Notes under the pieces: model-generated
The model's input: only the letters and a program-made list of their open reading frames with translations
The model's database searches: none
Told to the model about the DNA's origin: nothing
NCBI RefSeq assembly: GCF_046119375.1
Contig: NW_027362772.1
Span: forward strand, 288,238,001 to 288,302,000
From: Phyllobates terribilis
Lineage: Eukaryota
Direction: 5' to 3'
Length of the DNA: 64,000 nt
Program-made: the position numbers and the translations under genes
Shown: in pieces, positions 3,975 to 60,276 of the stretch
Position numbering within the stretch: the first letter of the stretch is position 1
Layout of the letters: each line of letters begins with the position of its first letter

Positions 3975-5544
3975 CAGTCATGGCCAAAAGTGTTGAGAAT
4001 GAGACAAATAGTAATTTTTCCAAAGTTTACTGCTTCATTTTTTGTAATGGCAATTTGCATATACTCCTGAATGTCAAAGAGTGATCAGCTTAACAGCAAT
4101 TACTGTACTTGCAAAGTCAATATTTGCCCAGAAAATGAACTTTAACCCCCAAAACACATTTCAACATCATTGCAGTCCTGCCTTAAAAGGAGCAGCTAAC
4201 ATCGTTTTAGTGATTGATCCATTAACACAGGTGTGGGTGTTGATGAGGACAGGGCTGGTGATCAATCAGTCATGATTAAGTAAGAATGACATCACTGGAC
4301 ACTTTAAAAGGAGGCTGGTTCTTGGTATCATTGTTTCTCTTCAGTTAACCATGGTTATCTCTAAAGAAACACGTGCAGCCATCATTGCACTGCACAAAAA
4401 TGGCCTAACAGGGAAGAGTATCGCAGCTACAAAGATTGCACCTCAGTCAACAATCTATCGCATCATCAAGAACTTCAAGGAGAGAGCTTCCATTGTTGTC
4501 AAAAAGGCTCCAGGGCACCCAAGAAAGACCAGCAAGCGCCAGGACCGTATCTTAAAACTGTTTCAGCTGCGGGATGGGACTACCAGCAGTGCCGAGCTTG
4601 CTCAGGAATGGCAGCAGGCTGGTGTGAGTGCTTCTGCACGCACTGTGAGGCGGAGACTCTTTGAGCAAGGGCTGGTTTCAAGGAGGGCAGCAAAGAAGCC
4701 ACTTCTCTCCAGAAAAAACATCAGGGACCGACTGATATTCTGCAAAAGGTACAGGGAGTGGACTGCTGAGGACTGGGGCAAAGTCATTTTCTCTCATGAA
4801 TCCACTTTTCGATTGTTTGGGACATCTGGAAAACAGCTTATTCGGAGAAGAAGAGGTGAGCGCTACCACCAGTCTTGTCTCATGCCAACTGTAAAGCATC
4901 CTGAAACCATTCATGTGTGGGGTTGCTTCTCAGCCAAGGGAATCGGCTCACTCACAGTCTTGCCTAAAAACACAGCCATGAATAAAGAATGGTACCAGAA
5001 TGTCCTCCAAGAGCAACTTCTCCCAACCTTCCAAGAGCAGTTTGGCACCCAACAATGCCTTTTCCAGCATGATGGAGCACCTTGCCATAAAGCAAAGGTG
5101 ATAACTAAATGGCTCATGGAACAAAACATAGAGATTTTGGGTCCATGGCCTGGAAACTCCCCAGATCTTAATCCCATTGAGAACTTGTGGTCAATCATCA
5201 AGAGACGGGTGGACAAACAAAAACCAACAAATTCTGGCAAAATGCAAGCATTGATTATGCAAGAATGGACTGCTATCAGTCAGGATTTGGTCCAAAAGTT
5301 GATTGAGAGCATGCCAGGGAGAATTACAGAGGTCTTGAAGAAGAAGGGGCAACACTGCAAATATTGACTTGCTGCATTAACTCATTCTAACTGTCAATAT
5401 AACTTATTGGTACTCATAATATGATTGCAATTATATTTCTGTATGTGATATAAACATCAGACAAACACTAATAAAAACCAGAGGCCCGCAGATCATGTGA
5501 AAATATAATTTTGGTGTCATTCTCAAAACTTTTGGCCATGACTG
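3975..5544 (+). mobile_element. Tc1-like DD35E (Traveler-type) transposon, full length, nested
   Basis: About 30-bp TIRs CAGTCATGGCCAAAAGT(G/T)TTGAGAATGA. TA duplicated at 3973-74 and 5545-46 within the host sequence ttcTAggttc, which is uninterrupted in the other host copies. Confidence 0.95.
4351..5367 (+). CDS. Tc1 transposase, 338 aa, open frame; first catalytic Asp replaced by His (FSHES)
   Basis: Paired/HTH-like N-terminus, GRPR-like PGHPRK, HVWGCFS, FQHDGAPCH...WPGNSPDLNPIE with 35 residues between D and E. Confidence 0.9.
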   Translation: MVISKETRAAIIALHKNGLTGKSIAATKIAPQSTIYRIIKNFKERASIVVKKAPGHPRKTSKRQDRILKLFQLRDGTTSSAELAQEWQQAGVSASARTVRRRLFEQGLVSRRAAKKPLLSRKNIRDRLIFCKRYREWTAEDWGKVIFSHESTFRLFGTSGKQLIRRRRGERYHQSCLMPTVKHPETIHVWGCFSAKGIGSLTVLPKNTAMNKEWYQNVLQEQLLPTFQEQFGTQQCLFQHDGAPCHKAKVITKWLMEQNIEILGPWPGNSPDLNPIENLWSIIKRRVDKQKPTNSGKMQALIMQEWTAISQDLVQKLIESMPGRITEVLKKKGQHCKY

Positions 5545-18275: not shown

Positions 18276-18467
18276 ATGGATGTGACAATCCAACATCCCT
18301 GGTTTCGCCGCCAATTTTTCTCCTTCTTTGGACCAAACAGGATGTTTGAACAGAGTTTTGGGGATCACCTTCAGGAGTCCGATCTGTTTCCCACCATGAT
18401 GTCCCCTTTCTACTTCAAATATCCTTTCCTTAGACTTCCATCCTGGATAGAAAGCGGCTTCTCGGAG
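18276..18467 (+). CDS. cryab: alpha-B crystallin exon 1 (64 aa, [12 protein letters not shown]...SWIESGFSE)
   Basis: Clear similarity to vertebrate CRYAB N-terminus; GAG|GTAATT donor at the conserved position. Confidence 0.97.
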
Positions 18468-21400
18468 GTAATTCTCTACTTGTTTTGTTCATTTTCCTGT
18501 AGTTCAATCTATAGGGACTGCGGCTTCCTAGCTGTTGTAACACTACAACTCCCAGCATGTCTTGCTACAGGATTTAGGGTGAGAACCAGCAAATGATAAT
18601 GTAAAAAAAGTCAGAACATCGATGAGGGGGGGGGGGGATTAGTCAATAGATGAAACTTTTAACTGTTTAGGTCCCAGAGGGTATAGCGGTAGAATGTGTT
18701 ACTATCAGGGAGTAAAATTGCAATTTATCTTATAATAAAGGGACATGGCGGATATAGAGAGGAGTGACCAAGTCTAAATACTTGCATTTTTGCTTTTGCA
18801 ATGCATGGTGAGGAAAAGAGTTAATTTGGGATATCCACTAGGTCTACGGGCTGTTTGTAAGCTGTGACCATTCCCTGCCCCGGAGGAAGCACTATGTTAG
18901 AAGTGCAATATTTGATATTCCAGCTTTATATTTTCTGTATGTGAATGGATTTTTATTAGGAACCCTAAGTGCAAAGTAAAAGCACCCAGTATTATTTATC
19001 AGCATATGGCGGTATTATGCTGGGATTCATAGGGCGCTATTTCTTGGGCTTTCCAAACATATATTAGGATGGGGCTTGCATAACCACAAAAATGTGTGTG
19101 ATTTGATGGAGGTTTTCGGTCACGAGACTTTGCATTTTGGGAAAGAGTCGTATGTGGATTGGGATTTAACACACACATTAGATGGTAAAATAATGAAATT
19201 GCGTCGTAGTCACTGTCGCATGTGATTTACAGTAAAGTGTAAGCTGGCAAAATTGCAACCAAAATCTTGCAGGTTTTCAGCTGTTGCAGTTGCATTATAT
19301 GATGTCTTGCAAAGTGACCACATTCGCAATCAGCGCTAGCGATGCTGTAATGTGACGCTTCATGACGCGCAACCAAAGTCGCTTTTTGTTACGTGCACAC
19401 TATGTGGTGTTAGTATTTGGACAGTATATGGCAGTATTATCAAGACACGATATGGTAGTATGCCTCCTGAGATCATCTTTCACTTTCAAAAATGCTAAAA
19501 TCCATCATGGTCACAACTAAATAGACTGCTAGCTCACTGAGGGATCAGATTACAGCTGTCTACTGAAGTCTATTGAGAGGAGAGTGAGGGGAGGTGGTAA
19601 GAGCAGAGAGAAAAGCAAAAGAGACATACACAGACTGTGCCGCTTCTTTTTATAAGTGTTTTAGCTCATCTCCACACCTGTCCCAGGTATTTCAGGCTCC
19701 ACTTCCTTCCTCTGGGTCCGCTGCCCTATGCTGTGCTCCAAGTTGGGTTTTGCAGATTGCTCAGAATGGATCAATGACATAATCTCCCTAGATGTATTAA
19801 AAAGACATACCTGTATTTTGGGATTGAGATTCTAGTGTTCCATGTTTGGTTTGCTCCATTAATTGTGCTTGCTGTGTTTTAAACTTGCATTCATCCCTGC
19901 TGGGTTCCACTCTGACCGTTCTCCTACTCCTGAGATTACTGTGTGTGCTAAGTCCTCGCTATCCACTGCCTTCCTGCTTGCTGCATTAACGCCCTGGGTC
20001 CGTAAGCCCACCTGGACCAAGGGATTAGAGGATCCACCTTACCTGTGGATTCAACACAAAGCAGGATCCACAGCTACACTGCTCAGTACTGCTGTATAGA
20101 GGTCTCCATACTTCTGGACGTGCTACAAAGAAACAAGGGAACAGAAATCCCTCATGTCTGTGTGTACTGTGTATGAGAGACATCAGGACAGCTATTTTCT
20201 TCCCACTAGCTCATAGAAAACTGAAAAGTAGAGATATATCCTGCATTTTCACCAGTTTCCCCTATTTCACCAATTCAGACTTTTCAAAACAAAACCAAAA
20301 AACGTTTCCCCTAAAGATCACTGATGATATATCAAGTCTTGTTTTGGTCTGTGCGAGCGCAGAAGTACTGTACATTCTCGTCCCACAGTAATAAATCAGT
20401 TGGCGCCCAGAGATTCCCTTATTAATATGCACATATCCCATTACAGCACAGATATAGACTTCCTAGACTGGAAGTCAACAGCTCGCCCAAACGTGTAATT
20501 AGTTTTCCTTACGAAATTCAGAAACACGAACCGTCGTACAGTGAGATTGGGTTATGCAATCATGTTTGTTTTCAGGTTCTTGTATTTCCTCTTCGGAGCC
20601 GACATTATTAGCTTGGGATCTGCAATGGGGTTGCAGTAATACCAATACTACCCTGGTCCATCTCCCGCCGGTCTTTGTCAGCAGTCCCGCAATGGAGACG
20701 ATCTAACTACCTTACATGACATCAGCGGTCATGTGCTACCATCACCGCTGAGGCCGGTGACTGACTGCAGCAATCAGATGACTATAGTCGGGACAAGGCA
20801 ACTATGAAGGACCAAGAGGACCACCAAAGAGACAACATGGGAACTATACGTACGACTTTATTTAGGAAACCATCTGAGGGATGACCTAATATTCCTGGTC
20901 ATGTTGCAAGGCTAGGACATTGCCCTTCAGGGTAGCTACCTCCAATCGGTGGTACTTAGAGAGCTTTCTTTTAGTCCAAGAGACAGCATGGACGATTGCC
21001 AAAAAGTCTCAACTTCTTATTAATAGGCCCATGGAGTTGGAAAAAAACTAGAAAAATACTGATACTTACCTGCTGGACCGGCGGCGCTCCACCGTACATA
21101 GCACTCAGTCGCTCGCCGGTCTGTTGGGTTCAGCATTTTGCGGGGGCATCATGTGAGCTCCAAAGCCTCCTAGCGGAAGAAACAGTGTTGATGTTGATCC
21201 CATCTGTCTGGTGGGGGACGCAATGCTGAGTACAGAAGAGCAGCGTTGGTCGGAGAGCTGAATAGAAGTTGTTGTCCACTAGTGGACAACCCCTTTAAAG
21301 CGTCAGTACCTATAAGGCAGCATCAAGGGCATCACATTTAGACAACTAACCCTGCACTGATAAAGGGGCAATGAATGTCTGACTTGGCTAATATCCCTGG

Positions 21401-21743
21401 TCATGTTACAAAGCTCAGTGAAGCGTCGGACATTGACTTGCAGGGTAGCTGCCTCCAATGGGCAGATGATTTTCTTTCCTTCCAGTCTGAGACCCAATAT
21501 TTTATCAACTGGGCAACCCCATCAAGAGCTGTGAAGGGGCAGGTAGACATGGCCATACTTAAATTATGCCTTAAACAGGCTCGATTATCTTGTACTTTTC
21601 TGAGAACTGGACCGTAAAGTCAAAGTAGTCTTGCAAAACCACATCTAAAATTTTGGCCTTTTGGGGGCGTTCCTGGTGGGCGAGGCTTAGATGTCCTGAA
21701 TATTGGTGTCAATTTTGGTAAGTACTGTATGCTTAAACTATGG

Positions 21744-23542
21744 TGTTATGCACACGCCCGGGCTGAGCGGCGTGTGCGTGTGATTGGTAGTGATTCCACT
21801 GGACCGTGCCGGAGAGTGAATGCCTGGAGGGGCGTGACTAAGTATTCACCCGATCCGACCAGGGTCGCACGACGGCATACGACGCCAGTGCACCAAGGAG
21901 GAACCGAGCAGAGGGACCAGGTGCTACTCCAGGACAGACCCCGGACACGGCTGTTGACCCACACAGGGGAATACAGGAACAGGCTGGTAGGCTGGCACAC
22001 AGACTGGTGGGTATAGGCAGGCACGACTGGTATGCAGGCAGGCGGGTATGCAGGCAGGGGGGTAAAGGCAAGCACAGCTAGAGTGCAGACAGGGAGGCAC
22101 TAGCAGGTAGGAACACAGGCGGGATAGGACCCAGTACACACTGGGACTCAGGAACAGGCAGGTTAGGCTGGCACAGACTGGTGGATATAAGCAAACACGG
22201 CAGGTATGCAGATGGGTGGATACAGGCGAGTATGCAGGCAGGGAGGTACTGGCCGAAAGGACGGGCTGGAGCACAGAAAGGTTAAGACCCAGTACAGACT
22301 GGGTCACAGAACCGCAGATGCGGTAGACAACCACAGCAGAGAGGGAACGCCCGAAGCGGTGGGCAAGAACAGAGCAGGACGGGGCTGCAGGAGCAGCGAG
22401 CACAAGCAGGGCAGGACAGGACTGCCGGAGCAGCGAGCACAAGCAGGGCAGGACAGGACTGCCGGAGCAGCGAGCACAAGCAGGGCAGGACAGGACTGCC
22501 GGAGCAGCGGGCAGAAGCAGGGCAGGACAGGACTGCCGGAGCAGCGGGCAGAAGCAGGGCAGGACAGGACTGCCGGAGCAGCGGGCAGAAGCAGGGCAGG
22601 ACAGGACTCTGTTCACACGGAACAGACAGGAAGGGAAAGACAGAGCCAGACACCCACAGGGTACTTGCAGTGAAGTAGCGAGTGGACCACAAACTCACAA
22701 ACGGGAGTACAGAGACAACAGGCAGGAGTTAGGTACGAGTTCAGACTCTGCAGAAAAAGGAAGGGAACGGACATAGAGGCAAAACAGGTAAAGGATAGGA
22801 GAGAGTTCAGACTGGAACTGAGTGTACGGAGGAGACCGACACTGCAGCGGGATACAGGAGCGGGTCTGGGAATACTGCCCCCAGAGAGGCGGGACGAACA
22901 GGCAAGGAGCGTGTTCAGACAGGACAGACAAGATACAGGAGCGGGTCTAGGTAATCGGCCCCTAGAAGGCGGGAGGAACAGGCTAGGAGCGTGTACAGAC
23001 AGGACAGACAAGATACACAGAAAGGACTCAGTTCAGACACGGGAACTAATACCGCAAAGCAGGAGACATACAGGACTCAGTTCAGACACGGGAGCTGATA
23101 CCGCAAAGCAGGAGACATACAGGACACAGTTCAGACACGGGAGCTGATACCGCAAAGCAGGAGACATACAGGACTAAGTTCAGACAGGCCTGGAAATACA
23201 GCCTCCAGGAAAGGCAGACAAGGAAACAAAGACGGGACCTGGCACCTTCAGAATGCAAGCACACACTGAAGGAAACACTTATGCTCAGGCAGGAATAGAA
23301 GGGAGCTGCTGAGCTATATACCAAGTGTCAGACAGCAATAGGCTGAGGACGCACAAGGGGTGTGACCCACAGCAGGTACAAAAAGCAGGAAGTGATCGGG
23401 CGCCGCCCTTAAGCAGCAGAGACAGACACAAACAGACAGCATGGAGGGAAGCCAGAGAGACACTCTGGACAGGAGATCAAGTGCGCTCTCTTGCACAGTG
23501 GGAGATGGACCACCATGCAAGGACGCCGCCAGGTATGTTACA
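21744..23542 (-). repeat. 3' LTR of the cryab-intron element
   Basis: Direct repeat of 25528-27363; contains five full 37-bp units (GCAGGGCAGGACAGGACTGCCGGAGCAGCGRGCASAA). Confidence 0.96.
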
Positions 23543-25389
23543 GTACCTCCCCCCTTACGCCCCCTCTTCTTCAGGCCTGCCAGAATCTTCCGCAGGGAAT
23601 TCGAGGACCAGTCGTTCACTGGGTTGGAGGGGGACAGAGACTTGAGGGTAATCTCTGCTTCGAGGTACATCTTGTCAAGCTCACAGGAAAAAATAGACGG
23701 GTTATCAGGTACATAATGAGGAAAAGTCACTGTCTCTTTGTTATCTGGTGGTACCCCGGAGGATTCAGGAAACAACTGGAGGTCCTCCGCCGGGTCAGAA
23801 GAGTGCAGAGGCTCAGAGAAAACAACTGCTTCAGAGTACACTAGGTCGGACTCACTGGAGGAAGCAGGCGAGGTATCGGGTACCGAGTATAGGAAAGTCT
23901 CTGTCCATTCACCACCAGGTGGCACCCCGAAGGGTTCTGAACACAACTGGAGGTCCTCCGCCTGGTCGGAGGGGTGTAGAGACTCGGGAGTAACCTCTGC
24001 TTCGGAGTACACTAGGTTGGACTCACTGGACGAAGCGAGCGAGGTATCAGGTACAGAGTATAGGAGAGTCTCTGTCCTTTCACCACCAGGTGGCACCCCA
24101 AAGGGTTCTGAACACAACTGGAGGTCCTCCGCCTGGTCGGAGGGGTGTAGAGACTCGGGAGTAACCTCTGCTTCGGAGTACACTAGGTTGGACTCACTGG
24201 AGGAAGCAGGCGAGGTATCGGGTACCGAGTATAGGAAAGTCTCTGTCCATTCACCACCAGGTGGCACCCCGAAGTGTTCTGAACACAACTGGAGGTCCTC
24301 CGCCTGGTCGGAGGGGTGTAGAGACTCGGGAGTAACTTCTGCTTCGGAGTACACTAGGTTGGACTCACTGTACGAAGCGAGCGAGGTATCAGGTACAGAG
24401 TATAGGAGAGTCTCTGTCCTTACGTTACCAGGTAGCACCCCGAAGGGTTCAGGAGACAACTGGAGATCCTCCGCCTGGTCGGAGGGGTGTAGAGACTCGG
24501 AGGTAACTACCACTTTGGGGTACCCATTGTCAGGCTCACAGGACGAAGCGGACAAAGTATTGAGTACCGGGTGTAGAGAAGTCTCTCTCCATTTGTCATC
24601 GAGTGGTATCCCGGAGGATTCAGGAGGCAACAGGGGATCCTCCGCCAGGTAGTAGAGGTGCACAGACTCAGAGGTAACCACAGCTTTGGAGCATCCTTGG
24701 ACATGCACACCGGTTAAAGAGAGAGAAGCATCTGATGCCGGGTGCAGGAAGTTCTCCTGTGTGGAGTCTGGATGGGCAGAAGTCTCTTCGGGCAGGAGAA
24801 CTGGTGCACTACCCACGCACATTACCCATTGGGGTTTCTCCGGGATACAGGGAGATGAAGCTTCAGTAGGGACTTCTAGGTTGGGGTCAGGAGGTCTCAG
24901 GGAGGACAGACCCTGGCGTGACGGCTTGCCTCTACGTCTAGCACGTCTGGACTGCCTCTTGAGGTTGAGAGAAGTATTCCGGAAAGCGTAGTCACCCTGT
25001 GAGGATTCTGGGTGGGCAGTAGTCTCATTGGGCTGGAGGACTATTGCGCTACCCACACACATTACCCATCGGGGCTGCTCCGGGATATTGGGAGGTGAAG
25101 CTTCAGCAGGAGCCTCCGGGTTAGGATCATCGAAGACCATTAGAAAGGCCACCAGGAAGGCCATTAGGTCCCGGAGGATCGGATCCTGTGTTTCATATAG
25201 GGGGTTGATCCATTCCAAGGCATCACCCGCCAGGTAAGACATCATAAAGGCCACTTTAGCCCAATCGGAAGGAAAGTAGAGAGGGTAGGCCTTAAAGTGT
25301 AGCATGCATTGCTCCACAAATGCACGACACTGTCTTGGATCCCCATAGTAACGTGGCGGATCCGCAGGAACGAGAGCTGATAGATCCAT
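23314..25389 (-). CDS. 691-aa ORF: Gag capsid N-terminal domain (about aa 1-89) fused to acidic Ser/Pro/Glu-rich tandem repeats
   Basis: Residues PPRYYGDP...VFDDP align without gaps at 44/79 identities to the Gag at 61495. Followed by two ~43-aa repeats, a basic patch and about six 57-aa (171-bp) repeats. The frame reads through the PPT and stops inside the 3' LTR. Confidence 0.8.
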   Translation of the reverse strand: MDLSALVPADPPRYYGDPRQCRAFVEQCMLHFKAYPLYFPSDWAKVAFMMSYLAGDALEWINPLYETQDPILRDLMAFLVAFLMVFDDPNPEAPAEASPPNIPEQPRWVMCVGSAIVLQPNETTAHPESSQGDYAFRNTSLNLKRQSRRARRRGKPSRQGLSSLRPPDPNLEVPTEASSPCIPEKPQWVMCVGSAPVLLPEETSAHPDSTQENFLHPASDASLSLTGVHVQGCSKAVVTSESVHLYYLAEDPLLPPESSGIPLDDKWRETSLHPVLNTLSASSCEPDNGYPKVVVTSESLHPSDQAEDLQLSPEPFGVLPGNVRTETLLYSVPDTSLASYSESNLVYSEAEVTPESLHPSDQAEDLQLCSEHFGVPPGGEWTETFLYSVPDTSPASSSESNLVYSEAEVTPESLHPSDQAEDLQLCSEPFGVPPGGERTETLLYSVPDTSLASSSESNLVYSEAEVTPESLHPSDQAEDLQLCSEPFGVPPGGEWTETFLYSVPDTSPASSSESDLVYSEAVVFSEPLHSSDPAEDLQLFPESSGVPPDNKETVTFPHYVPDNPSIFSCELDKMYLEAEITLKSLSPSNPVNDWSSNSLRKILAGLKKRGRKGGGTVTYLAASLHGGPSPTVQESALDLLSRVSLWLPSMLSVCVCLCCLRAAPDHFLLFVPAVGHTPCASSAYCCLTLGI

Positions 25390-25527
25390 CTGGACGGTGC
25401 GTAATTCGCCTGGAACTCAGCTAAGGGAAAAAAAATTTATTTATTTATTTTAATGCATATATTCGCTGGAAAACTTCTCAGAGGGCGAAGGCCGTGGGGC
25501 TCAACGGGAACCATGGCCTGAGCATGC

Positions 25528-27363
25528 TGTTATGCACACGCCCGGGCTGAGCGGCGTGTGCGTGTGATTGGTAGTGATTCCACTGGACCGTGCCGGAGAG
25601 TGAATGCCTGGAGGGGCGTGACTAAGTATTCACCCGATCCGACCAGGGTCGCACGACGGCATACGACGCCAGTGCACCAAGGAGGAACCGAGCAGAGGGA
25701 CCAGGTGCTACTCCAGGACAGACCCCGGACACGGCTGTTGACCCACACAGGGGAATACAGGAACAGGCTGGTAGGCTGGCACACAGACTGGTGGGTATAG
25801 GCAGGCACGACTGGTATGCAGGCAGGCGGGTATGCAGGCAGGGGGGTAAAGGCAAGCACAGCTAGAGTGCAGACAGGGAGGCACTAGCAGGTAGGAACAC
25901 AGGCGGGATAGGACCCAGTACACACTGGGACTCAGGAACAGGCAGGTTAGGCTGGCACAGACTGGTGGATATAAGCAAACACGGCAGGTATGCAGATGGG
26001 TGGATACAGGCGAGTATGCAGGCAGGGAGGTACTGGCCGAAAGGACGGGCTGGAGCACAGAAAGGTTAAGACCCAGTACAGACTGGGTCACAGAACCGCA
26101 GATGCGGTAGACAACCACAGCAGAGAGGGAACGCCCGAAGCGGTGGGCAAGAACAGAGCAGGACGGGGCTGCAGGAGCAGCGAGCACAAGCAGGGCAGGA
26201 CAGGACTGCCGGAGCAGCGAGCACAAGCAGGGCAGGACAGGACTGCCGGAGCAGCGAGCACAAGCAGGGCAGGACAGGACTGCCGGAGCAGCGGGCAGAA
26301 GCAGGGCAGGACAGGACTGCCGGAGCAGCGGGCAGAAGCAGGGCAGGACAGGACTGCCGGAGCAGCGGGCAGAAGCAGGGCAGGACAGGACTGCCGGAGC
26401 AGCGGGCAGAAGCAGGGCAGGACAGGACTCTGTTCACACGGAACAGACAGGAAGGGAAAGACAGAGCCAGACACCCACAGGGTACTTGCAGTGAAGTAGC
26501 GAGTGGACCACAAACTCACAAACGGGAGTACAGAGACAACAGGCAGGAGTTAGGTACGAGTTCAGACTCTGCAGAAAAAGGAAGGGAACGGACATAGAGG
26601 CAAAACAGGTAAAGGATAGGAGAGAGTTCAGACTGGAACTGAGTGTACGGAGGAGACCGACACTGCAGCGGGATACAGGAGCGGGTCTGGGAATACTGCC
26701 CCCAGAGAGGCGGGACGAACAGGCAAGGAGCGTGTTCAGACAGGACAGACAAGATACAGGAGCGGGTCTAGGTAATCGGCCCCTAGAAGGCGGGAGGAAC
26801 AGGCTAGGAGCGTGTACAGACAGGACAGACAAGATACACAGAAAGGACTCAGTTCAGACACGGGAACTAATACCGCAAAGCAGGAGACATACAGGACTCA
26901 GTTCAGACACGGGAGCTGATACCGCAAAGCAGGAGACATACAGGACACAGTTCAGACACGGGAGCTGATACCGCAAAGCAGGAGACATACAGGACTAAGT
27001 TCAGACAGGCCTGGAAATACAGCCTCCAGGAAAGGCAGACAAGGAAACAAAGACGGGACCTGGCACCTTCAGAATGCAAGCACACACTGAAGGAAACACT
27101 TATGCTCAGGCAGGAATAGAAGGGAGCTGCTGAGCTATATACCAAGTGTCAGACAGCAATAGGCTGAGGACGCACAAGGGGTGTGACCCACAGCAGGTAC
27201 AAAAAGCAGGAAGTGATCGGGCGCCGCCCTTAAGCAGCAGAGACAGACACAAACAGACAGCATGGAGGGAAGCCAGAGAGACACTCTGGACAGGAGATCA
27301 AGTGCGCTCTCTTGCACAGTGGGAGATGGACCACCATGCAAGGACGCCGCCAGGTATGTTACA
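25528..27363 (-). repeat. 5' LTR of the cryab-intron element (TATA at 27141-27136; predicted start near 27111)
   Basis: Apparently identical to the 3' LTR except for one extra 37-bp unit (six full units). Confidence 0.96.
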
Positions 27364-27501
27364 TATGGTTTGTTCTGAAATGTAAACATACATTTTGTTA
27401 GAGAACCTTTATATTAAAGGTGGTTTTCTAGGACCACTACAGTGATGGCCTATCCATTATTCGACCACGGTTATAATAACACGTTCCATCATTTTCCACA
27501 G

Positions 27502-27624
27502 ATGAGAATGGAAAAGGACAAGTTTTCTGTTAACCTCGATGTAAAACATTTCTCCCCGGAAGAGCTGAAAGTGAAAGTGATGGGTGATTTCATTGAAATC
27601 CATGGAAAGCACGAGGAGCGTCCG
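27502..27624 (+). CDS. cryab: alpha-B crystallin exon 2 ([25 protein letters not shown]...HGKHEERP)
   Basis: CAG|ATG acceptor, CCG|GTAATG donor, 123 nt; alpha-crystallin domain. Confidence 0.97.
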
Positions 27625-40021: not shown

Positions 40022-41989
40022 GTAACTGCACAGTCTGCAGCTTATCGCCATAGCAGAGGTATCATCTTACAGGAGTGTTATAGGATAAAAAGTAGTTGAG
40101 CAAAAATATTCCCACCATCCAGTGTCCACTTTCGTTCTCCACGGCAGGGCGACGCCATGACGTTGCAGCACCTATGAAGCGTCAGAGGAATTGAGGATGG
40201 CGAGTCAACTGCTGCCACGCAGGACTGGAGTGGAGGGTAGTGTGAATATTTTTGCTTTTTTCTAACATTATTCTTTAGGCTATTTGCCCACATAGCAGAT
40301 TTGATGCAGAGTGTTTTTGCCTCTCTCTGGCAGAAAAAAACGCATGCAGATTTACATGCGGTTTTTCGGCCAGGGAGAAGCATTTTTTCAGCGTTTCTAC
40401 ATGCGTATTGGCATGTGTTTTTTCAAGCACTTTTCCAAGCGATTTTGAGTATCACTTGGAAAAGTGCTTGACAAGTTAGTCACACAATATAAATCCATGG
40501 ATTTATATTATGTGACCAGCTTAGATGCTTTGAATGCTGCAACTATAGTAAAAAAAAAAAAAACAAAAAAAAAAACCCTGTATACTCACCTCTCCAGTCT
40601 CCTCCCGGCGGCGATTCTCTCTCCTCGGCGTCCCGCGGTCTACTGGCAGGACCTGCGGTGACGTAATTTAATCAGCTGATGGTCACGCGACCATCACCTG
40701 ACCGCTGACGTCAGCGGTTGCGTGACCATCAGCTGATTAAATTACGTCACCGCAGGTCCTGCCAGTACACCTCGGGACGCTGAGGAGAGAAGATCGCCGC
40801 CGGGAGGAGACCGGAGAGGTGAGTATACTGGTCTTTTTCTATCGCTTCGTTGGGGGACACAGGAAACCATGGGTGTATGCTGTTGTCACTAGGAGGCTGA
40901 CACTAGGCAGAAAAAAAGGACTAACTGCTCCCCAGCAGGCTACACCCACACTGGGATTGAACTAACCAGTTTTGGCTTAGTGTCCAAGGAGGCAAGACAT
41001 GGGTCTGCGTTCAGGCCCGTCTCTACCATCTTGTTGTGTTTTATTAATGTTTTTCCTTTCTTTTTCAGATACAGCTTGTGACTTCGGGCAACAGGGTGTA
41101 ACAGCTCACCCTGATTTCCCACCTTTTGGGACAGAGAGAACAATGTGGTGTTGCCCACATCGTCCACTCTCTTGTCTAACAGGCAGGACCCTTTTTTCCC
41201 CCTAACTCTTCCGAAGAGTTTTGGGGTGACTCGTGGCGGATGGTCCTCTCCCCACCCCAGCCCCCTCCTCGGAGCGGGCCGGGAGGAAGACTGTGATCAC
41301 TGGTCAGTGATCCTCCCCTCATCCAGGGTCGACACCGTCTTTTGCACCGCCGGGGACTGCGACAGTGCGGGAAGGAAGACGTTCCTATTCCAGAGACACC
41401 CCCCCCCCCCCCTCAACCGGGGGCTGCTGATGCCGTCTTCAGGACTGTGAAGAAGGAGTCGGGGCCTCTCCAGAGACAGGTACCCTCCTTTCTACAGTCC
41501 TTTCTTCAGGTGGCGGGAGCTCCACAGGACAGCCAGCTGGATATTGTTCCCGGTCGTTCTCCCTCATTTCCAGCCGACTTTCAAAATTTAGGCCCTGGCT
41601 TCGGCCTAGTTCCATTCCACACGCCCCCCACCGCACCATTAGCCCCTCAGAGCCACGGACTCTTCCTAACCCCCTTTTTTTCTATCTAATCCCTGCTGTT
41701 TTTTCTTTTCCTCAGCGCAGGCTCTCTGTGCGCACTTTTTCGACTCCGTCCCCTCCTTTTCCCGCTGGCGCCATTACTCGCACGGCCTGCGGCCTCCATC
41801 TTGGCGCCTGCCGCAGCCGGGGTCACAGCTACAGACGCTGCCCGCGCCACAGCGCCAGCTGTGGCCTCCATCTCAGCGCCAACCGCAGCCCCTGTCACAG
41901 CGCTAGCCCTGCCGCGTATCCTTTCCAGCTGCGGCCTCCAATCCAATGCTAGCTGCGGCCTACATCATGGCTCTAGCCGCGTCCCCTTC

Positions 41990-42190
41990 AGTGACTGCCC
42001 CAGCCTCCGTCACAGCGCCAGCAGCGGCCTCCGTCACAGCGCCAGCAGCGGCCTCCGTCACAGCGCCAGCAGCGGCCTCCGTCACAGCGCCAGCAGCGGC
42101 CTCCGTCACAGCGCCAGCAGCGGCCTCCGTCGCAGCGCCAGCAGCGGCCTCCGTCGCAGCGCCAGCAGCGGCCTCCATCGCAGTGCCAGC
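41990..42190. repeat. 24-bp tandem repeat (GCCAGCAGCGGCCTCCGTCACAGC) inside the DIRS
   Basis: About 7 units. Confidence 0.85.
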
Positions 42191-42416
42191 CACGGGCTCT
42201 GGCACAGCTACAGCCATTCCCTCCGTCACCCAGCCGCAGCCTCTTTCACATCGGCTCCTGGCCCTCTTCAGCCTCGGATCCTGGCACTGCTTCAACCGTT
42301 AGCCCATGGGCAATCAACACCGAGGGTCCCCCACATAGGATAAGGTAGGCCCTGTCCTGGCCGTCGGCCCCTCGGGCCCAGTCCTCCTTTTTTTCTAAAC
42401 TGTCCAAATAGTTTAT

Positions 42417-42848
42417 GGGACATTTCATTCCACAACCATAGAGTTTGTTGGGCACTTCATTCCAAAACCACAGCGTTTGTGGGACATTTCATTCCAAAAC
42501 CACAGCGTTTGTGGGACATTTCATTCCAAAACCACAGCGTTTGTGGGACATTTCATTCCAAAACCACAGCGTTTGTGGGACATTTCATTCCAAAACCACA
42601 GCGTTTGTGGGACATTTCATTCCAAAACCACAGCGTTTGTGGGACATTTCATTCCAAAACCACAGCGTTTGTGGGACATTTCATTCCAAAACCACAGCGT
42701 TTGTGGGACATTTCATTCCAAAACCACAGCGTTTGTGGGACATTTCATTCCAAAACCACAGCGTTTGTGGGACATTTCATTCCAAAACCACAGAGTTTGT
42801 GGGACATTTCATTCCAAAACCACAGAGTTTGTGGGACATTTCATGGGA
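42417..42848. repeat. 32-bp minisatellite (GGGACATTTCATTCCAAAACCACAGCGTTTGT) inside the DIRS
   Basis: About 13 near-identical units. Confidence 0.93.
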
Positions 42849-44185
42849 CATCCCAAAACTGTACAGATTGTGGGGCAGACCATGCTAAGACTTATGGTAT
42901 GAGGGTACCAATATCCATAGGTCAGCAGGAATCTCCGTGCATCGACCACAACAACCCCAAGCACTCAGTTCTCTCCGGAGCTCCCTGCCACCAGGATCGA
43001 AAGCGGTATTCCAATGGTTGCTGCCTTATTGTATCCGGCACCAACCTCACCAACCTTTGGTAGAGGTCCCTTTGCGACTACCTAACAAGCCATCAGCCTC
43101 AGCTGCTCTGACTATTTCCCAAGATGTATCAGATGCATGCTTTTACAGCAGACCGCGCAGAGTTCCAGGGAGCGGGTGCCCTCCAGCTTTATGTCTGGAC
43201 TCCCCTTGTTCCTACATAATCTAGGACTATTCCCATGCCTCGCTTCTCTTTCCCAGAGATAGTTTTAGAGTTGGACCTCTCCACCCTGCTACCCGAGCCG
43301 GATTCCGATCTAGACTCCAACCGGCCCCTCCAGGTCACAAGACATGATGAACAGCCCGGTATCAGCTGTCAAGCAAGCCTGAGTCAAGGACGACGAACCT
43401 CTTCCACAAAGACCATTCTCTTCTCGAGAGTGTCTCTCACCTCCAATCATGAAGAGATCTGATTGAGTGCCCCTTGCGAATGAGGTATACTCAGGAAATG
43501 GTGTTCAGAGCAGTTATCGTTCTAGAATTCTTCTGCAACCTACGGTTTCTGGTCATTTAACATTCTGATACCTGCAGGGTGCCTTGCCTATAGCAGGTTA
43601 CCTTGTTTATGGTACACACAGGAGCTGTTTTATGCCTCTCCTTACGGACAGGTCCACAATTCACCAAGGTTGTGCCCTCACACTGTTCCTACTAGCGATA
43701 GTAAGTCAGAACCGAGATGTCTCCAGAGTTATTATTTTTATAACGGAGTGACTGTTCGATACTTTGCCAGTCTTGCAGTGTGTCAGAACACTCCATCCTC
43801 CGTGTCCACAGCTGTAGAGCTTCCTTTATGGAACATACCTGGTGTTCCACCAGCTCCACGACCATACCTATGGCACGACTACCCAGGCAAACCACTGCCA
43901 ACTCCTGCCCACTTCCTAATGGCATCAGATCTATGTGGTTGCCTATCCCGCCAACAGTCCTTTCGGACTAAGGCGGGTCAGTAACAGAGTGTTACCTTGC
44001 CACTGCTATTTAAGAACATACATGCAACAACCTCCATTATCTCCGTTTCAGAGGTTTCTTATGCATCAACTGTCGGGTACTCTCTGCAGTTGGTCAGACC
44101 CACTAACATCTATGGCCACAGCTATACAGCTGTCTCTTTTCAACGGCATAAATCCATGTAGTGCTCCAGGCACTTATCTTATCTA

Positions 44186-45807
44186 CAGTACAGACCAAAA
44201 GTTTGGACACACCTCATTTAAAGATTTTTCTGTATTTTCATGACTTTGAAAATTGTACATTCACACTGAAGGCATCAAACTATGAATTAACACATGTGGA
44301 ATTATATACTTAACAAAAAAGTGTGAAACAACTGAAAATATGTCTTATATTTTAGGTTCTTCAAAGTAGCCACCTTTTGCTTTGATGACTGCTTTGCACA
44401 CTCTTGGCATTCTCTTGATGAGCTTCAAGAGGTAGTCACCGGAAATGGTCTTCACTTCACAGGTGTGCCCTGTCAGGTTTAATAAGTGGGATTTCTTGCC
44501 TTATAAATGGGGTTGGGACCATCAGTTGTGTTGTGCAGAAGTCAGGTGGATAAACAGCTGATAGTCCTACTGAATAGACTGTTAGCTGTTTTTTCTTGCC
44601 ATAATACAAATTCTAAGTAAAGAAAAATGAGTGGCCATCATTACTTTAAGAAATGAAGGTCAGTCAGTCCGAAAAATTAGGCAAACTTTGAATGTGTCCC
44701 CAAGTGCAGTTACAAAAACCATCAAGCGCTACAAAGAAACTGGCTCGCATGAGGACCGCCCTAGGAAAGGAAGACCAAGAGTCACCTCTGCTTCTGAGGA
44801 TAAGTTTATCCGAGTCACCAGCCTCAGAAATCGCAGGTTAATAGCAGCTCAGATTAGAGACCAGGTCAATGCCACACAGAGTTCTAGCAGCAGACACATC
44901 TCTACAACAACTGTTAAGAGGAGACTTTGTGCAGCAGGCCTTCATGGTAAAATAGCTGCTAGGAAACCACTGCTAAGGACAGGCAACAAGCAGAAGAGAC
45001 TTGTTTGGGCTAAAGAACACAAAGAATGGACATTAGACCAGTGGAAATCTGTGCTTTGGTCTGATGAGTCCAAATTTGAGATCTTTGGTTCCAACCACCG
45101 TGTCTTTGTGCGACGCAGAAAAGGTGAACGGATGGACTCTACATGCCTGGTTCCCACCGTGAAGCATGGAGGAGGAGGTGTGATGGTGTGGGGGTGCTTT
45201 GCTGGTGACACTGTTGGGAATTTATTCAAAATTGAAGGCATACTGAACCAGCATGGCTACCACAGCATCTTGCAGCGGCTTGCTATTCCATCCGGTTTCC
45301 GTTTAGTTGGACCATCATTTATTTTTCAACAGGACAATGACCCCAAACACACCTCCAGGCTGTGTAAGGGCTAATTGACCAAGAAGGAGAGTGATGGGGT
45401 GCTACGCCAGATGACCTGGCCTCCACAGTCACCAGACCTGAACCCAATCGAGATGGTTTGGGGTGAACTGGACCGCAGAGTGAAGGTAAAAGGGCCAAGA
45501 AGTGCTAAGCATCTCTGGGAACTCCTTCAAGATTGTTGGAAGACCATTTCTGGTGACAACCACTTGAAGCTCATCAAGAGAATGCCAAGAGTGTGCAAAG
45601 CAGTCATCAAAGCAAAAGGTGGCTACTTTGAAGAACCTAGAATATAAGACATATTTTCAGTTGTTTCACACTTTTTTGTTATGTATATAATTCCACATGT
45701 GTTAATTCATAGCTTTGATGCCTTCAGTGTGAATGTACAATTTTCAAAGTCATGAAAATACAGAAAAATCTTTAAATGAGGTGTGTCCAAACTTTTGGTC
45801 TGTACTG
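44186..45807 (+). mobile_element. Tc1-like DD38E transposon copy 2, inserted in the DIRS; start codon inverted and one nonsense codon
   Basis: TA flanks; ~268-bp TIRs; WSDESKF, FQQDNDPKH, WPPQSPDLNPIE; TAA at 45372-74. Confidence 0.95.
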
Positions 45808-48696
45808 TATATCTGGGCTCTTTGTCCATTACCCCTAGCGGTTCAGACCTACTACCCCCCCCTTATTAGCAGCTACAGTGTTTTTATCCGTTTGCTGCTA
45901 ACCCTGTAGTATTCGATCCACTATCCACAGCCTGTCAGTTTGTCGACACTCTCCTTTTTGTTTCCTCAGAAGAAGACTTGAAGAGGTCTGCAACAAATTA
46001 CAGACATGCTATTACAGACCAGATGCTGTTACAGGCTCTGTTCATACCAGAGATCAGGTCTTAGTTCGTCACGAAAACAGATTCTTCTTGTCCTGCTCAT
46101 CCTGACCACCCCGGTTCGCCCAGGCTTCGTGGGACCTACCTGTCTGATGCCTATACACGAGTTGTTGTCGAGTTGTTGTTCTGGTTTTCTTTTTCCCTAC
46201 AGTTGTCGTCAACGCCTTTCATCAGTTGGATAATCGGCTGTTTGCGGCGCTCCTCTAGGGAGACTATTCCGCATACAGGTACTCGCCTTTTCTTCCGTCA
46301 CATGTCAAGGACCGAAACAGACCTAGGGTCTCTAGACGCCTTGAGATGAAACACCTGATTACTGAGGTACCTGATCGGTAGGAGGTAATGTTGTGTCTCT
46401 AGCCTAATTTTCTCTTTCGACAAGAGAACTTCCGACTTTCAGGACATGGAAGCCTTTCCTCAAGCCGGCACTATCCGGCTTAACATTTGTCCAGTCAGAA
46501 GTTTCCACTTCCAGGGACAGTTGTTGGCAGCACCCAACATTTGCAGGATGAAGGGTTGGTAACGGAGCTCATCTCGGAAGACTCATCTTTGGATTCAGGA
46601 TTCCGCATGCAGGTACTCTTCTTTTCTTCCTTCCTTTCGGGATTGCCACTTGTCTAGAATCAAGATGGACTATCGGTCTCCAGACGCCTTATGATGAAAC
46701 ACCTGATTCCACAACCTGAACCATTCTGCCGTCTACCTGACTAGGACCTCATTAATGCCATGTCTCTTACCATACCTTCTGTTTCGACGAAGAGAACTTG
46801 CGCCTAGCAGGATATGATGGCCCTTATTCAAGCCGGTCCTGTCCAGCGTAACACGAACCAGTGGGTCGTTTCCAGAGACAGGTAAGGTTCTCCTCAGAGC
46901 ATTCCCTTCAGATAGGCGTTATTTCTGCGTGACATGTGTCATCATGATTAATCCTACCGTGGGTGGAATCCTCCCTCCGTTGGCGCCATAGTCTTTACTC
47001 TCACGATAAGAGTTCTCGATACTTCCCTTGGAGGGTTGGACTCTTTGGTGACCATCTTCCTGTCCTCTTTTTTTTGCCTTCTTCTCTCATCTCTACATAA
47101 GCGTGTTGAGTAAATTTGGGGGACAGTGTAACACATGGAACAGGGGAGCCCTTCCCCCAGATCGGTCCTTAATTCTTCCCCCCTGAGCGATGTTTTCCCT
47201 GTATGGGAGGGGCTATCCTCCCGTCTAGCCTGAGCCCTGCGCCTGTCGGAAGTGGGAAGTGTTCTGGGACACTTGTTCCCTGGCCGGGGAGCTGCCTTCT
47301 AATGCCCCCCCATTTCAAGGTCACAGGAAGTCCAGGACCTTTTCCTTTTTCCGACTCGCTTAGGTTTAGAGCCCGTCTTATCTGTTCTAGCCGTGACTTA
47401 CATACAGGGTGGAGCGCTAAATTAGACCGTCTGGTGCTTCGGTCTGAACTCATTGTTCTGTTTTTTCCTCCACAGTTTCTCCCCTGAACGGGGGACACTT
47501 CCAGTTTATCCAGAATGTTCCTATCGCTCCATGGACTGTTCGTCCTTCCTGGTCTTCGGTCCACACCTTCTCCTTGTATTACACGGTATCTCCACTCGGC
47601 ATCAGCAACGCCAATCGGTATTGGAAGGTCCCTCATGCAGTAGTGGACCAACCTTACTTTTTGAGTACTTGTCTTTTCCCTCCCTAGGGACTGCTTTAGG
47701 ACGTCCCATGATTTCCTGTGTCCCCCAATGAAGCGATAGAGAAAAGAGGATTTTTGGTACTCACCGTAAAATCCTTTTCTCGGAGCCTTCATTGGGGGAC
47801 ACAGCACCCACCCTTATTTGTGCCATTTTTGGTTCATCTTAGGGTAATCTTTTATACCTCCTTTCCTACTGCTTTCTCACAAACTGGTTAGTTCACTCCC
47901 AGGGTGGGTGTAGCCTGCTGGGGAGCAGTTAGCCCTTTTTTCTGCCTAGTGTCAGCCTCCTAGTGGCAGCAACATACACCCATGGTTTCCTGTGTCCCCC
48001 AATGAAGGCTCCGAGAAAAGGATTTTACGGTGAGTACCAAAAATCCTCTTTTTTTATTTTTAGCTTTTCTTTTTTTCACCGCGTGGTAGCCGGGATCAAG
48101 AGGAGTTGTAGTCTCCTCTTCATCCTGGGTACCACACGCAAAGCGATTATGCTGCAAATTCGCGGCCATTGAATTTAATTGAAACGCAGCAAATCCACAT
48201 ATACCTGCGGGTTTGCTGCGTTTCAATGTTCCTCAATGGCCGCGAATTTGCAGCGTAATCGCAATGCGAATTCGGCGCGCTAATTAGCGCATCATGTGCA
48301 CAGCACATCCGAATTCACATTGCTTTGCATGGCCGACTGTTTTACAAGCGTTTTTGCGGCCGTAAAAACGCTACGTGGGCACATGGCCTTATTCTTTCAT
48401 TATCAATTCCTCGTGATTTCTGCACGCAGTCAATTAGCATGAAGAGCCAAGTATCTGCGTGATCATCGCATGACCGGGTCTGGTTCACATCTCCCCAAAA
48501 TAACCAATGAGTTTTCCCACGCAGTGATCTTGACAGTGGCAATGCCTGATACAGTTACTTTAATGGAAAACTCTTACTTTGTGTTGAATACTGAATAACC
48601 TTTATCTGCTGAAGCTAGAATTCCCATGTAATTATTACACTATTATCACATTATATCGTAATAATTTATATTAATATTTCTCGCTTTCTTTCTTAG

Positions 48697-48831: not shown

Positions 48832-50403
48832 GTGATTACATGTGATAACTTTTTTGGTTACCTTACATTAGTCTCAGAGCCTCCCATTTTTCCTTAACTC
48901 AACCGCAAGAGTAAAGAAAGTAAGAAATCGTACAGACATATCCCAGTCATTGTCTCCTGTAAGTGCTGGTGGTATTGTGTTTTGGTAGAGGGCGACCCTG
49001 ACAGATCTTTATAGGAGTGCTAGATCTGGCCCTGTTATGCTGCAGGGGTCAGCAACCTGCAGCACGCCAGCAATTGTGAAACTGCAACTCTCAACATGCC
49101 CTGATAGGCTTTGGCCATTAGGACATGCTCGGAGTTGTAGTTTCACAACAGCTGGAGTGTTACTGAACAGCACCGGGGAAAATCTAATTTTTCGCTGGTG
49201 TTTCTTACTATAGCACACCTTTTCATTATTGCAAAATAGATTTGCAGTTTGCTTTTATTGCAAGTGTTTGGCTTGTAGAGCTTACAGGTAATACAGAACA
49301 GTGCAGGCTGCTCAATCCTATTCTGTCTCAAGTCCATGAGACAAACCATTTCTCCAGCCCTTCTCCGACGCACATTTTATCCCTTGCTGGTTGGGCAGAG
49401 CGCCCACAGCCGTGCAGTCCTCCCTGCCTTGTACTGATTGTACTGAGGAATGATGAGTGTTCACATGTTCAGCTTCTGTATTTATGTTGCCTTGGGTGAG
49501 TAAACCACTAGAATATCAGATATTATCCTCCATCTTATATCCTATTCTACTAGGGAATTTAATATTTAGTCCCTTCCTCTACCCTAGACCACCCTGGTAA
49601 TTGAATATTAAAGGGGCTGTCTGAGGATTTAAAAAAAAAAAAAAAATGAATAAGATGAAAATAAACAATACTCCTCTACTCAATCTCCACCAGCCACATG
49701 GCCGACACTTTGGTGACTTCCATCGCTTGCTCTGGTCTCATGCCGTACATGCCTGTGTGACTGCTGATTCCCGCAGTGATGACGTGCTGTACATTTCACC
49801 AAAGGTGCACGAATTAGGAGCCTATGAACGGTAGACGTGATGTCATCACTGCCGGATCATAACGGTGGGGCTTGAGTCGCGTCACCACCGCTGAGAGCTC
49901 GGACTTTCTGTAAAAGATGTTACAGAAGTTAGGTTTCTTTGGAATTAGTGGGCAAGTAAAGTTTCATCCCAGAAAACACCTTTAAACTGTTTCCTGGACA
50001 AATCCTTTAAAGAGAATCTGTCATCACAAAATGACTGTTCAAACCAAGCACTGGTTCTCGGTGCATCCTTGGAGTTGCCAAACACTTTAATGCCTTTTTC
50101 CTTCTTTCTCTAGCCTCATCTGGCTCGTGTAAACCCAGAGCTGTCAATTAAGGAAGAGGGGGCAGAAATAGATGGAATAAAAGTAGGTGGCAAGGAATTG
50201 ATTGGCCGTGCCAAGTTTGAACAGTCGTTTTGTGCTGACAGTCTACTCTAGACTGCTGAGGAGAAAGTCTGAATATTTTTTTTTTATCTGTCTAAATTTC
50301 TTATAAAATTCTTCTAAAAATGCAGTCAAAAAATTTGGTGTGAAAAATTATTTTTTTTTAATAATTTTCTAATAAAAATTCTGTATTTTTTTTATTCTTT
50401 CAG

Positions 50404-51499
50404 GGGTTTCTTAGGTAAAATATCTCGTCACCTCATCGGTGTAATATATAAAGAGCTGGTGAAGTGTTTTCGTCAGAAGCTTCAGGTGAACGTCTTGGAA
50501 GACACATTTCCGCTTATTTGTCGCGACGACTCTTGTTCTCCTCATTCCCCGCATTCAGCGGCTCACTCCAAACTTTACTTTGTGACTTGTGGTAAAGAGA
50601 AGGAAGGATCTGAGAGTTCTGGTGACTTCCACAGGACGCGCTTATGTTCAGTTGAGCCGGCTTTTCGGCAGGGAACTCACCAGGACAATAATCGGACATC
50701 AGGGCGGCATCATCTGAGACCGTCGCTGACTTGTTTTATCGACGATATTGCTCATAAATCCAACGTCAGAGCAGATCCTCTGACCGTGGTGAGCGGCCTC
50801 GTCTTTAGGAAGCGTCTGATATCTCCGCAGTCCATGCCGGTTTATCACGAGATGCTCATGTTGTTGGATTGCCGAGAACAGCTCCAACTGGTAATGGACA
50901 CCATGAACACAGCCGTGGCGTCCATCATATCTACGGAAACTGTGAATAGTGAGAAAGTAAGACTCGGCTTAACATTTCATCAGGAAAAAGGAGATTATAT
51001 CATCTGGATGTCACCTGCTGATCCTGACCGGATCATAGGGACGATCAAACAGGTCCCCACCGGAGATCGACATAACATACTCATAGTATCGCTGAATTTA
51101 GATTTACTCGCCATGTGTCTGCTCGGCATTGAAGACTGGAGACTTCTGTGGACGGAAGATGACCGATTCGAAGCCCAGTTCCATCATGGTGACCTAAAAC
51201 CTTACCGGACCTTCTCCCTATATCCCCCCTGTTATATCCACGACGTTAGTTTTTGGGTGGAGGATGCCGGATTCGATGAAGTGGAGTTTCACACCATAGC
51301 GCTGCAAGTGTCAAAGGGAAACATTGTGGATATTCAGCTTCTGGACCAGTATAAAAATGCAGAAACTGGGAGAACTGGTCTGTGTTACCGGCTGAAATAT
51401 CAGTCCTGTGACCGAGCGCTGAGTTACAGGTCGGCGCTGGCGATGCAGCTGCAGCTTCGGGATGAGCTGCGGAGGCGTTTACACCTCGTTCTCAGATAG
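50404..51499 (+). CDS. fdxacb1: FDXACB1 last exon with the FDX-ACB domain (HDVSFW...YRLKYQSCDRALS); total about 586 aa
   Basis: TTTCAG|G acceptor in frame; C-terminal ferredoxin-fold anticodon-binding motifs. Confidence 0.95.

Positions 51500-60201: not shown

Positions 60202-60273
<72 letters not shown>
60202..60273. repeat. (TA)n microsatellite directly abutting the LTR
   Basis: About 36 TA units. Confidence 0.97.

Positions 60274-60276
<3 letters not shown>

Follow-up and report, generated by a model that had tools for sequence, protein, structure and literature searches.

A half-capsid reading frame kept open in a high-copy, pol-less retrotransposon family of Phyllobates terribilis

Background

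Non-autonomous long terminal repeat (LTR) retrotransposons are usually viewed as needing either cis-acting DNA and RNA signals alone or a whole Gag. The stretch analyzed here, 64,000 nucleotides of the Phyllobates terribilis genome (contig NW_027362772.1, positions 288,238,001 to 288,302,000, forward strand; hereafter the window, with positions counted from its first letter), contains at 21744-27363 on the minus strand an LTR element of 5,620 bp. Its one open reading frame (ORF) runs from an ATG at 25389 to a stop at 23314 and encodes, in 691 residues, the N-terminal domain (NTD) of a retrotransposon capsid followed by a long tail. Why should a mobile element carry half a capsid? The explanation that we prefer, and to which we give roughly an even chance, is that self-priming Tf1/sushi chromoviruses gave rise to a high-copy, non-autonomous LTR family, that the element is one of its young copies, and that a cis-acting half-capsid brings its own RNA into the particles of relatives. 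Across the family the open frame is under selection and the NTD is moderately constrained.

A family of half-capsid copies

Two exact patterns covering the junction of the LTR and the primer-binding site (PBS) matched the genome 5,363 and 3,109 times (at least 8,472 in all, against 0 and 0 for the reversed patterns), and an LTR-end pattern matched 27,533 times (reversed control, 1); these counts come from a 10.57-Gb assembly, which may hold duplicates. From contig C1 we took 94 copies by position: 59 from the first 60 matches listed for pattern 1, with one left out as the second unit of a tandem, plus the initial 35 for pattern 2. None of the 94 has a capsid C-terminal domain (CTD) or pol, and all 94 have the NTD at the start, followed directly by an arginine-rich motif in 88; tandem NTDs occur in 4 and deletion variants in 2. 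The possibility, raised by the first-pass annotation, that other copies carry a full gag-pol and that this one is a one-off deletion is rejected on this sample (0 of 94).

Internal regions span 1,090-2,869 nt in the 90 copies with the 3' LTR in reach. Target-site duplications (TSDs) match in 53 of 56 copies with both LTRs in the first set and in 24 of 28 in the second. Because the two LTRs differ by 0-22 mismatches in the first set (median 2-3, 56 copies) and by 5-79 in the second, family activity is both long-lasting and recent. As a rough estimate (8,472 copies of about 5.5 kb plus some 10,000 further LTR ends), the family makes up about 60-70 Mb, or about 0.6% of the 10.6-Gb assembly, and surveys of the kind that count pol-bearing Ty3 elements alone (described in excerpts of PMC12822217) would overlook it.

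Tandem-NTD copies make up 4 of the 59 in the first set (L085, L108, L112 and L120; L161 and L162 are further examples). Single-NTD variants resemble mosaics of NTD types, which suggests recombination. Five copies without an NTD (L236-L240) were considered as a subfamily and rejected as such, since their common 5' flank marks a single insertion followed by segmental duplication across contigs C1, C10 and C15; that insertion apparently arose by deletion between the ATG at the PBS and an internal ATG. Tandem arrays of two to four elements about 4 kb apart, apparently with LTRs in common, also lie on C1 (for example at 29113087/29117072, 86492394-86504708 and 109129792/109133802).

Selection on the open reading frame

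We classed variants column by column as shared (common to at least three copies, and presumed to be inherited through transposition) or private (presumed to have arisen after insertion), with an assumed transition bias of 3; the tail rows comprised 325 repeat units and three non-repeat segments of 74, 68 and 75 rows, three odd-length rows having been dropped. The 271 shared tail variants included 190 nonsynonymous and 81 synonymous changes and no stop, against 8.0 expected (P = 3e-4), whereas the private variants (175 nonsynonymous, 69 synonymous) included 7 stops against 7.2 expected (shared versus private, Fisher p = 0.006). Variants present in exactly two copies (n = 86) hold no stop. The 90 copies fall into 33 length classes, which are interdependent, many differing by whole units; all 10 shared classes preserve the frame, and each of the 10 out-of-frame classes is a single copy. 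A linker stop was flagged in three copies; its exact codon context occurs in just two genome-wide, and the contexts differ. Because stops have been purged among transposition-inherited variants of a family of thousands of copies, we infer that the fusion product, or its translation, would benefit in cis the RNA or locus from which it comes; the depletion of frameshifts among shared variants points the same way.

A neutral relic, in which a few master copies stayed open by chance and the ORF has no role, is in our judgment quite unlikely. Tail growth largely by duplication of units whose length is a multiple of three, interdependent length classes and a tail ratio of nonsynonymous to synonymous rates (omega, or dN/dS) of about 1 would all be expected of it; the stop-free set of 271 shared substitutions would not, nor would an open frame in every one of the subfamilies that differ by 10-14% in the tail, while other sense frames of the repeat units carry 1-9 stops in most cases. 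Over the whole internal region of the window copy (1,985 nt), frames other than the ORF contain 4-44 stops, the 4 falling in the frame of the ORF, ahead of its ATG.

For the NTD, column-wise counts over 88 copies gave 40 nonsynonymous and 27 synonymous shared variants, that is, an omega of 0.57 (binomial p = 0.028), with a private omega of 1.04; pairwise omega between NTD variants ranges from 0.09 to 0.78. The copy survey with an NTD dN/dS below 1, which had been put forward as a check, therefore came out as anticipated, and the opposite outcome, an ORF randomly disrupted with dN/dS near 1, is not what we see: the frame is kept in replicated lineages. A tree built on 79 columns, with a rough bootstrap, places the 23 family NTD rows in a single clade (100/100, stem 0.69), apart from 12 NTDs of autonomous elements of this genome and 11 Gags from databases. 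Because the family is a single clade, the constraint on the NTD postdates the loss of the CTD and pol, unless closer autonomous donors are unsampled. The window copy retains all 10 near-invariant columns of 100 aligned Gags.

The main rival, tentative and well short of even in our estimate, is a different kind of cis advantage, in which translation through the element rather than the protein is what is selected: an ORF reaching the 3' LTR would shorten the 3' untranslated region and shield the RNA from nonsense-mediated decay (NMD), or route it to assembly sites, with the NTD a relic in slow decay. NMD protection is inherently cis-acting, and it accounts for a tail omega of about 1 with no shared stops or frameshifts, for the absent charge constraint and for the end of the ORF at or within the 3' LTR in 49 of 57 copies. 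It fails to predict an NTD omega of 0.57, the 10 core residues kept over a long stem, or the tandem NTDs, and a 1.7-kb leader with 8 upstream ATGs would expose the unspliced RNA to decay anyway. NMD protection and a role for the protein can coexist.

Anatomy of the element and its ORF

The first-pass annotation had described a complete, recently inserted, TSD-flanked element with near-identical LTRs, and this description holds: TATGG stands on both sides, the polypurine tract (PPT) directly adjoins the 3' LTR, and the LTRs show 0 mismatches over 1,799 aligned nt, their sole difference being an indel of one 37-nt repeat unit. TG...CA LTRs, PPT and a 5-bp TSD are thus all present, as is expected of the Tf1/sushi type. 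The features are as follows (the TATA box being read directly from the sequence).

21739..21743, no strand: target-site duplication TATGG, left
21744..23542, minus: 3' LTR, 1,799 nt, TG...CA
23314..25389, minus: single ORF, 691 amino acids, comprising capsid NTD, linker, Arg motif, acidic repeats, Pol end and 75 LTR-encoded codons
23543..23595, minus: extended PPT, which in the Pol frame is the Pol C-terminus LRKILAGLKKRGRKGGGT; 81-89% identity to the autonomous group
23747..24691, minus: 171-nt (57-residue) acidic tandem repeat; net unit charge mostly -8 to -12; unit number differs between copies
24756..25129, minus: two imperfect in-frame repeats, 240 nt apart, 81% identical over 134 nt
24913..24960, minus: Arg-rich motif LKRQSRRARRRGKPSR, residues 144-159; candidate RNA-binding or nuclear-localization patch; in 86 of 90 copies
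25123..25359, minus: capsid N-terminal domain, residues 11-89, DUF4939
25390..25514, minus: leader, with a 25-codon upstream ORF (uORF) from the ancestral Gag ATG (25514), TAAA run, stops in three frames, poly-T and an acceptor-like AG (25422-25421)
25516..25527, minus: primer-binding site, self-priming type
25528..27363, minus: 5' LTR of 1,836 nt, whose unique 5' region (U5) carries tandem arrays of 37-, 49- and 80-nt units
25608..25716, minus: candidate packaging signal, a U5 stem-loop of about 110 nt that shows compensatory changes and also occurs in the autonomous group
27102..27111, minus: self-primer, the predicted RNA 5' end, complementary to the PBS
27136..27141, minus: TATA box of the 5' LTR
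27364..27368, no strand: target-site duplication TATGG, right

The ORF keeps the capsid NTD and nothing further of Gag, as had been proposed: the homology ends at VFDDP (residue 89), residues 11-89 being identical to the Gag at 61495 in the window at 44 of 79 positions without a gap. The suggested profile hidden Markov model search found DUF4939 alone among Pfam families (31.7 bits, cutoff 29), in line with the claimed absence of a CTD, zinc knuckle, protease, reverse transcriptase (RT) and integrase. The best library matches of the NTD are full Gags at 50-56%. Pol, with its protease, RT, ribonuclease H, integrase and chromodomain, is absent from the window copy apart from its last 18 residues, which form residues 599-616 of the ORF and overlap the PPT; 80 of 90 copies have this Pol end in frame with the NTD. 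The final 75 codons of the ORF fall inside the 3' LTR, vary in number between copies with a G run and LTR sequence, and are probably incidental.

The open tail of about 600 residues (602) is as first described, but its characterization as mostly acidic repeats was overstated, the 57-residue units covering about 265 of the 602 residues (about 44%); overall it is 13.8% D+E and 5.1% K+R. The Arg-rich motif has 9 K/R in 16 residues. In a 1.84-billion-entry library, the 150 listed of 1,026 matches were all confined to about residues 2-132, word-index searches for proteins of 380-1,210 amino acids were empty and ESM Atlas returned no usable match; against 21 autonomous loci the tail has no match beyond the Pol end. 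Such blanks fall short of proving that the tail has no homologue.

Self-priming and the leader

The PBS pairs over 10 bp (-19 kcal/mol) with LTR nt 253-262, about 25 nt past the TATA box, where the RNA start is predicted. Of the two replication signals reported by the first-pass annotation, the PPT stands as described and the primer site is real but of the self-priming Tf1/sushi type; a tRNA primer is rejected, because the PBS is complementary to the element's own LTR, and no tRNA gene lies within the 64-kb window. The same layout occurs in the neighboring element at 60273, and the design is known from Tf1/sushi elements of yeast and vertebrates (PMC6317226, in part).

All three frames of the leader are closed by stops in 89 of 91 copies. 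The ancestral Gag ATG beside the PBS now starts a uORF of 19-34 codons. Of 92 copies, 89 close it ahead of the main start, and its frame is random with respect to that of the main ORF (32/31/29). Where a poly-T tract was located (90 copies), 89 keep an AG after it, an arrangement that resembles a splice acceptor; the 30 AG-less copies read, of 55, are point mutants of unspliced elements. Two patterns for spliced retrocopies had 0 matches, a donor-like site at 25636 falling outside these patterns. Four contig sets (two studies, two organism labels, kind undefined) contain the family and no acceptor joint, and are neutral on expression.

The candidate helper group

The Pol-end pattern 'FLxGLKKRGRKG' has 2,291 matches, and the 30 that we read are elements ending in a chromodomain with the identical PPT type. 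The neighbor at 60273 is a member of this 'FLxGLKKRGRKGG' group: over 60273-64000 both its gag (316 residues) and its chromodomain-bearing pol (1,122 codons) are open, and the element is itself inserted at an (AT)n run. Family and group are 81-89% identical in the PPT region and 70-84% over the 110-nt U5 segment, whose stem-loop has 95.9% of cells paired and 5 compensatory pairs across 19 rows, of which 2 are from the family and 17 from autonomous elements; these very rows were used to derive the structure, which tilts the controls in its favor. The 5' LTR of the neighbor (60273-64000, and locus L140) has no BLAST match to this stem-loop, which most relatives have. Outside the stem-loop the family LTRs (1.3-2.3 kb) are unalignable with autonomous LTRs, and the LTR ends and self-primers differ. 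The Gag at 61495, with which the first-pass annotation had compared the ORF, belongs by PPT and Pol end to the right autonomous group, but given its other LTR ends and self-primer it is at most a candidate helper. On sequence grounds the 'FLxGLKKRGRKGG' chromovirus group is likely the source and helper of the family. Most of the autonomous copies sampled are decayed, 4 of 30 being stop-free over their final 500 codons. In one autonomous element of the presumed helper group, a family LTR is nested in the integrase region (L285:6685-7400).

Structure of the capsid domain

AlphaFold predicts the NTD with a mean predicted local distance difference test (pLDDT) value of 88.6 from an alignment of 100 sequences; a single-sequence fold (pLDDT 45) was unusable. 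The model resembles dArc1 (Z 8.9, rmsd 3.8, 85 aligned), Drt2 (8.5), Copia (7.8), PNMA2 (7.7) and the Ty3 NTD (Z 7.4, rmsd 3.0, 73 aligned), with unrelated rows at or below 4.6; capsid CTDs are also returned, as both lobes have one fold. A PDB sequence search with the NTD gave chance matches only, and Foldseek with the NTD gave nothing at E <= 0.001.

We also modeled the NTD with three capsid (CA) partners from the neighbor, as the first-pass annotation had suggested. The score was 0.39, against 0.04 for the best control, at least 85% of contacts agree and partner pLDDT is at least 71. Scores of 0.60 or lower were held by 5 of 78 solved complexes and by all 4 mismatches that passed, and passes in this range are more often wrong unless the contact was likely beforehand. 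The model therefore gives a weak indication that the NTD may bind helper CA, and likeness to solved complexes may explain the score.

Mechanism and alternatives

The element keeps its cis signals: the self-primer/PBS pair, the U5 stem-loop, the extended PPT and the LTR ends. Under the cis-acting half-capsid explanation, RT and integrase would be supplied in trans by the 'FLxGLKKRGRKGG' group, and the RNA would likely be translated at a low level, behind the short uORF or as a spliced form, the uORF keeping the protein dose low. The NTD would then enter helper Gag rings through NTD-NTD contacts, while Arg-rich and C-terminal basic patches might take over from the lost zinc knuckle the task of holding the RNA, and a spacer of immaterial sequence might be all that the acidic repeats provide. 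With no CTD, the protein would be tolerable at low stoichiometry only, and some harm to the helper would be a likely side effect; the CTD being needed for lattice closure, the family presumably could build no particles alone.

Several observations weigh against this explanation. Tail residues are unconstrained (omega about 1.0), charge-changing repeat variants are not depleted (21 of 102 shared versus 26% expected, p = 0.26), and a small sample of Arg-motif variants (5 nonsynonymous, 1 synonymous) gives no sign of constraint. For the NTD, the contrast between shared and private variants is not significant (Fisher p = 0.14), and in helix 4 a loss of basic residues (FRKVF to FLMVF) may alter lattice contacts. 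Should the conserved poly-T/AG function as a splice acceptor, the mRNA would be without the PBS and unpackageable, and a model in which the protein acts on the molecule that encodes it would be weakened. A young autonomous family with the same PBS was not found among the 30 of 37 matches read, which were family members and two decayed Gags. Finally, an NTD without its CTD reduced PEG10 particle abundance (PMC11684626, in excerpt).

A more elaborate version, possible but doubtful in our view, makes the still-active family a capsid-pirating satellite: the half-capsid would be a 'boarding pass' into helper Gag rings that tethers its own RNA and displaces that of the helper, the NTD variants and the doubled-NTD subfamily would be traces of an arms race with several helpers, and the family would be a living, mobile model of a state that might precede the domestication of RTL8-like restrictors.

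The first-pass annotation had left two roles side by side, co-assembly favoring the element's own packaging and restriction of the helper. The former fits, since the purging of stops needs a cis effect; the latter, as the reason why the ORF persists, is unsupported. As a trans-acting inhibitor of autonomous relatives, selected at the level of the host or population in the manner of RTL8 or of Ty1 p22 copy-number control, the protein seems to us improbable. NTD-only RTL8 and the PEG10 NTD do lower particle numbers (PMC11684626, in the text available), and the prevalent decay among sampled autonomous copies (4 of 30 free of stops in the last 500 codons) would suit such an inhibitor. A trans inhibitor is a shared good, however, and copies that had lost it would still replicate, yet the shared variants hold no stops; moreover, the family has grown past 8,000 copies and remains young, the median over 56 copies being 2-3 LTR mismatches. 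Because selection on transposed lineages points to cis action, a packaging or assembly aid appears likelier than restriction.

Relation to known systems

The closest parallel in mechanism would be the mouse IAP 1Δ1 elements, which are non-autonomous, encode a Gag-Pol fusion ORF created by an internal 1.9-kb deletion, use helper proteins in trans and dominate new insertions; the fusion product is reported to be cis-acting (PMC6466679 and PMC7411935, in excerpt). By analogy, the family ORF is a single Gag-Pol fusion with the NTD in frame with the Pol end. Unlike the retroviral IAP 1Δ1, the family is a Ty3/Gypsy chromovirus with a sushi-type Gag and self-priming, and retains only the capsid NTD and 18 Pol residues, bridged by about 500 residues for which no homologue was found. 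A half-capsid ORF open in replicating lineages would be a natural, highly replicated case of an IAP 1Δ1-type cis advantage. Among bovine D-type ERVK elements, gene-less defective copies dominate new insertions (PMC10924933, in part).

LDOC1 has an acidic tail. In architecture the family appears closest to RTL8/LDOC1 (Mart/SIRH), by convergence: both have the DUF4939 N-lobe alone, from the sushi lineage, followed by unrelated sequence. RTL8 and LDOC1 are fixed mammalian host genes, whereas the family is mobile (at least 8,472 copies, LTRs, independent TSDs), selected in cis and non-orthologous. The comparison had been framed as a common layout of NTD plus acidic tail and as a snapshot of how RTL8-like genes arise; the likeness in having the N-lobe only stands, but convergence replaces descent, and no acidic tail of RTL8 emerges from PMC11684626, in whose main text the word 'acidic' occurs 0 times. 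RTL8 is a truncated capsid of 113 residues that enters PEG10 particles via its NTD and is tolerated at low levels (PMC11684626, as excerpted), and LDOC1 and RTL8A/B/C are strongly constrained 'half-capsid' genes, with table values of about 0.06-0.09 (PMC10516033, in the part available).

TR-GAG of plants (PMC4350172), Sabrina/WHAM of wheat (PMC9744471) and Bik-1/Bik-2 of zebrafish (PMC12067270) are likewise active non-autonomous elements in which a single ORF is Gag-related while RT and integrase are absent; the product is a Gag precursor or capsid assembly domain, with no CTD loss reported in the available portions of these sources, whereas the family has no CTD. TR-GAG is also under 4 kb with one Gag-precursor ORF, compared with 5,620 bp, half a capsid and neither CTD nor zinc knuckle in the window element. 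The self-priming PBS and DUF4939 Gag are shared with vertebrate Tf1/sushi chromoviruses (PMC6317226, same excerpt), and the PPT, Pol end and U5 stem-loop with the autonomous chromodomain group of this genome, from which the family differs in having no pol. Ty1 p22/p18 and Drt2 are, similarly, lone capsid lobes linked to a retrotransposon, but these are CTDs and trans-dominant restrictors, whereas the family ORF aligns gaplessly to the NTD of the neighbor's Gag (PMC11684626 and PMC12530519, in part, for the former). We found no NTD-only mobile family in the open literature; Repbase and Dfam were outside this search, and an automatic name there is possible. The family makes two questions testable: how defective elements beat their helpers for particles, and whether the N-lobe-only layout of RTL8/LDOC1 can arise selfishly first.

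Genomic surroundings

The element lies antisense in intron 1 of an alpha-crystallin (alphaB-like) gene (18276-27624; exons at about 18276 and at 27502), 138 nt upstream of exon 2. Elsewhere in the window are Tc1-like transposase ORFs at 4276-5367 (open, 363 codons), 44631-45374 and 52189-53259 (both interrupted), and an ORF at 50318-51499 that ends in an FDX-ACB domain, like the last exon of FDXACB1. ORFs at 41431-43984 and 47169-47813 carry 24- and 32-nt repeats with RT-like fragments and are possibly another degraded retroelement, DIRS-like by resemblance.

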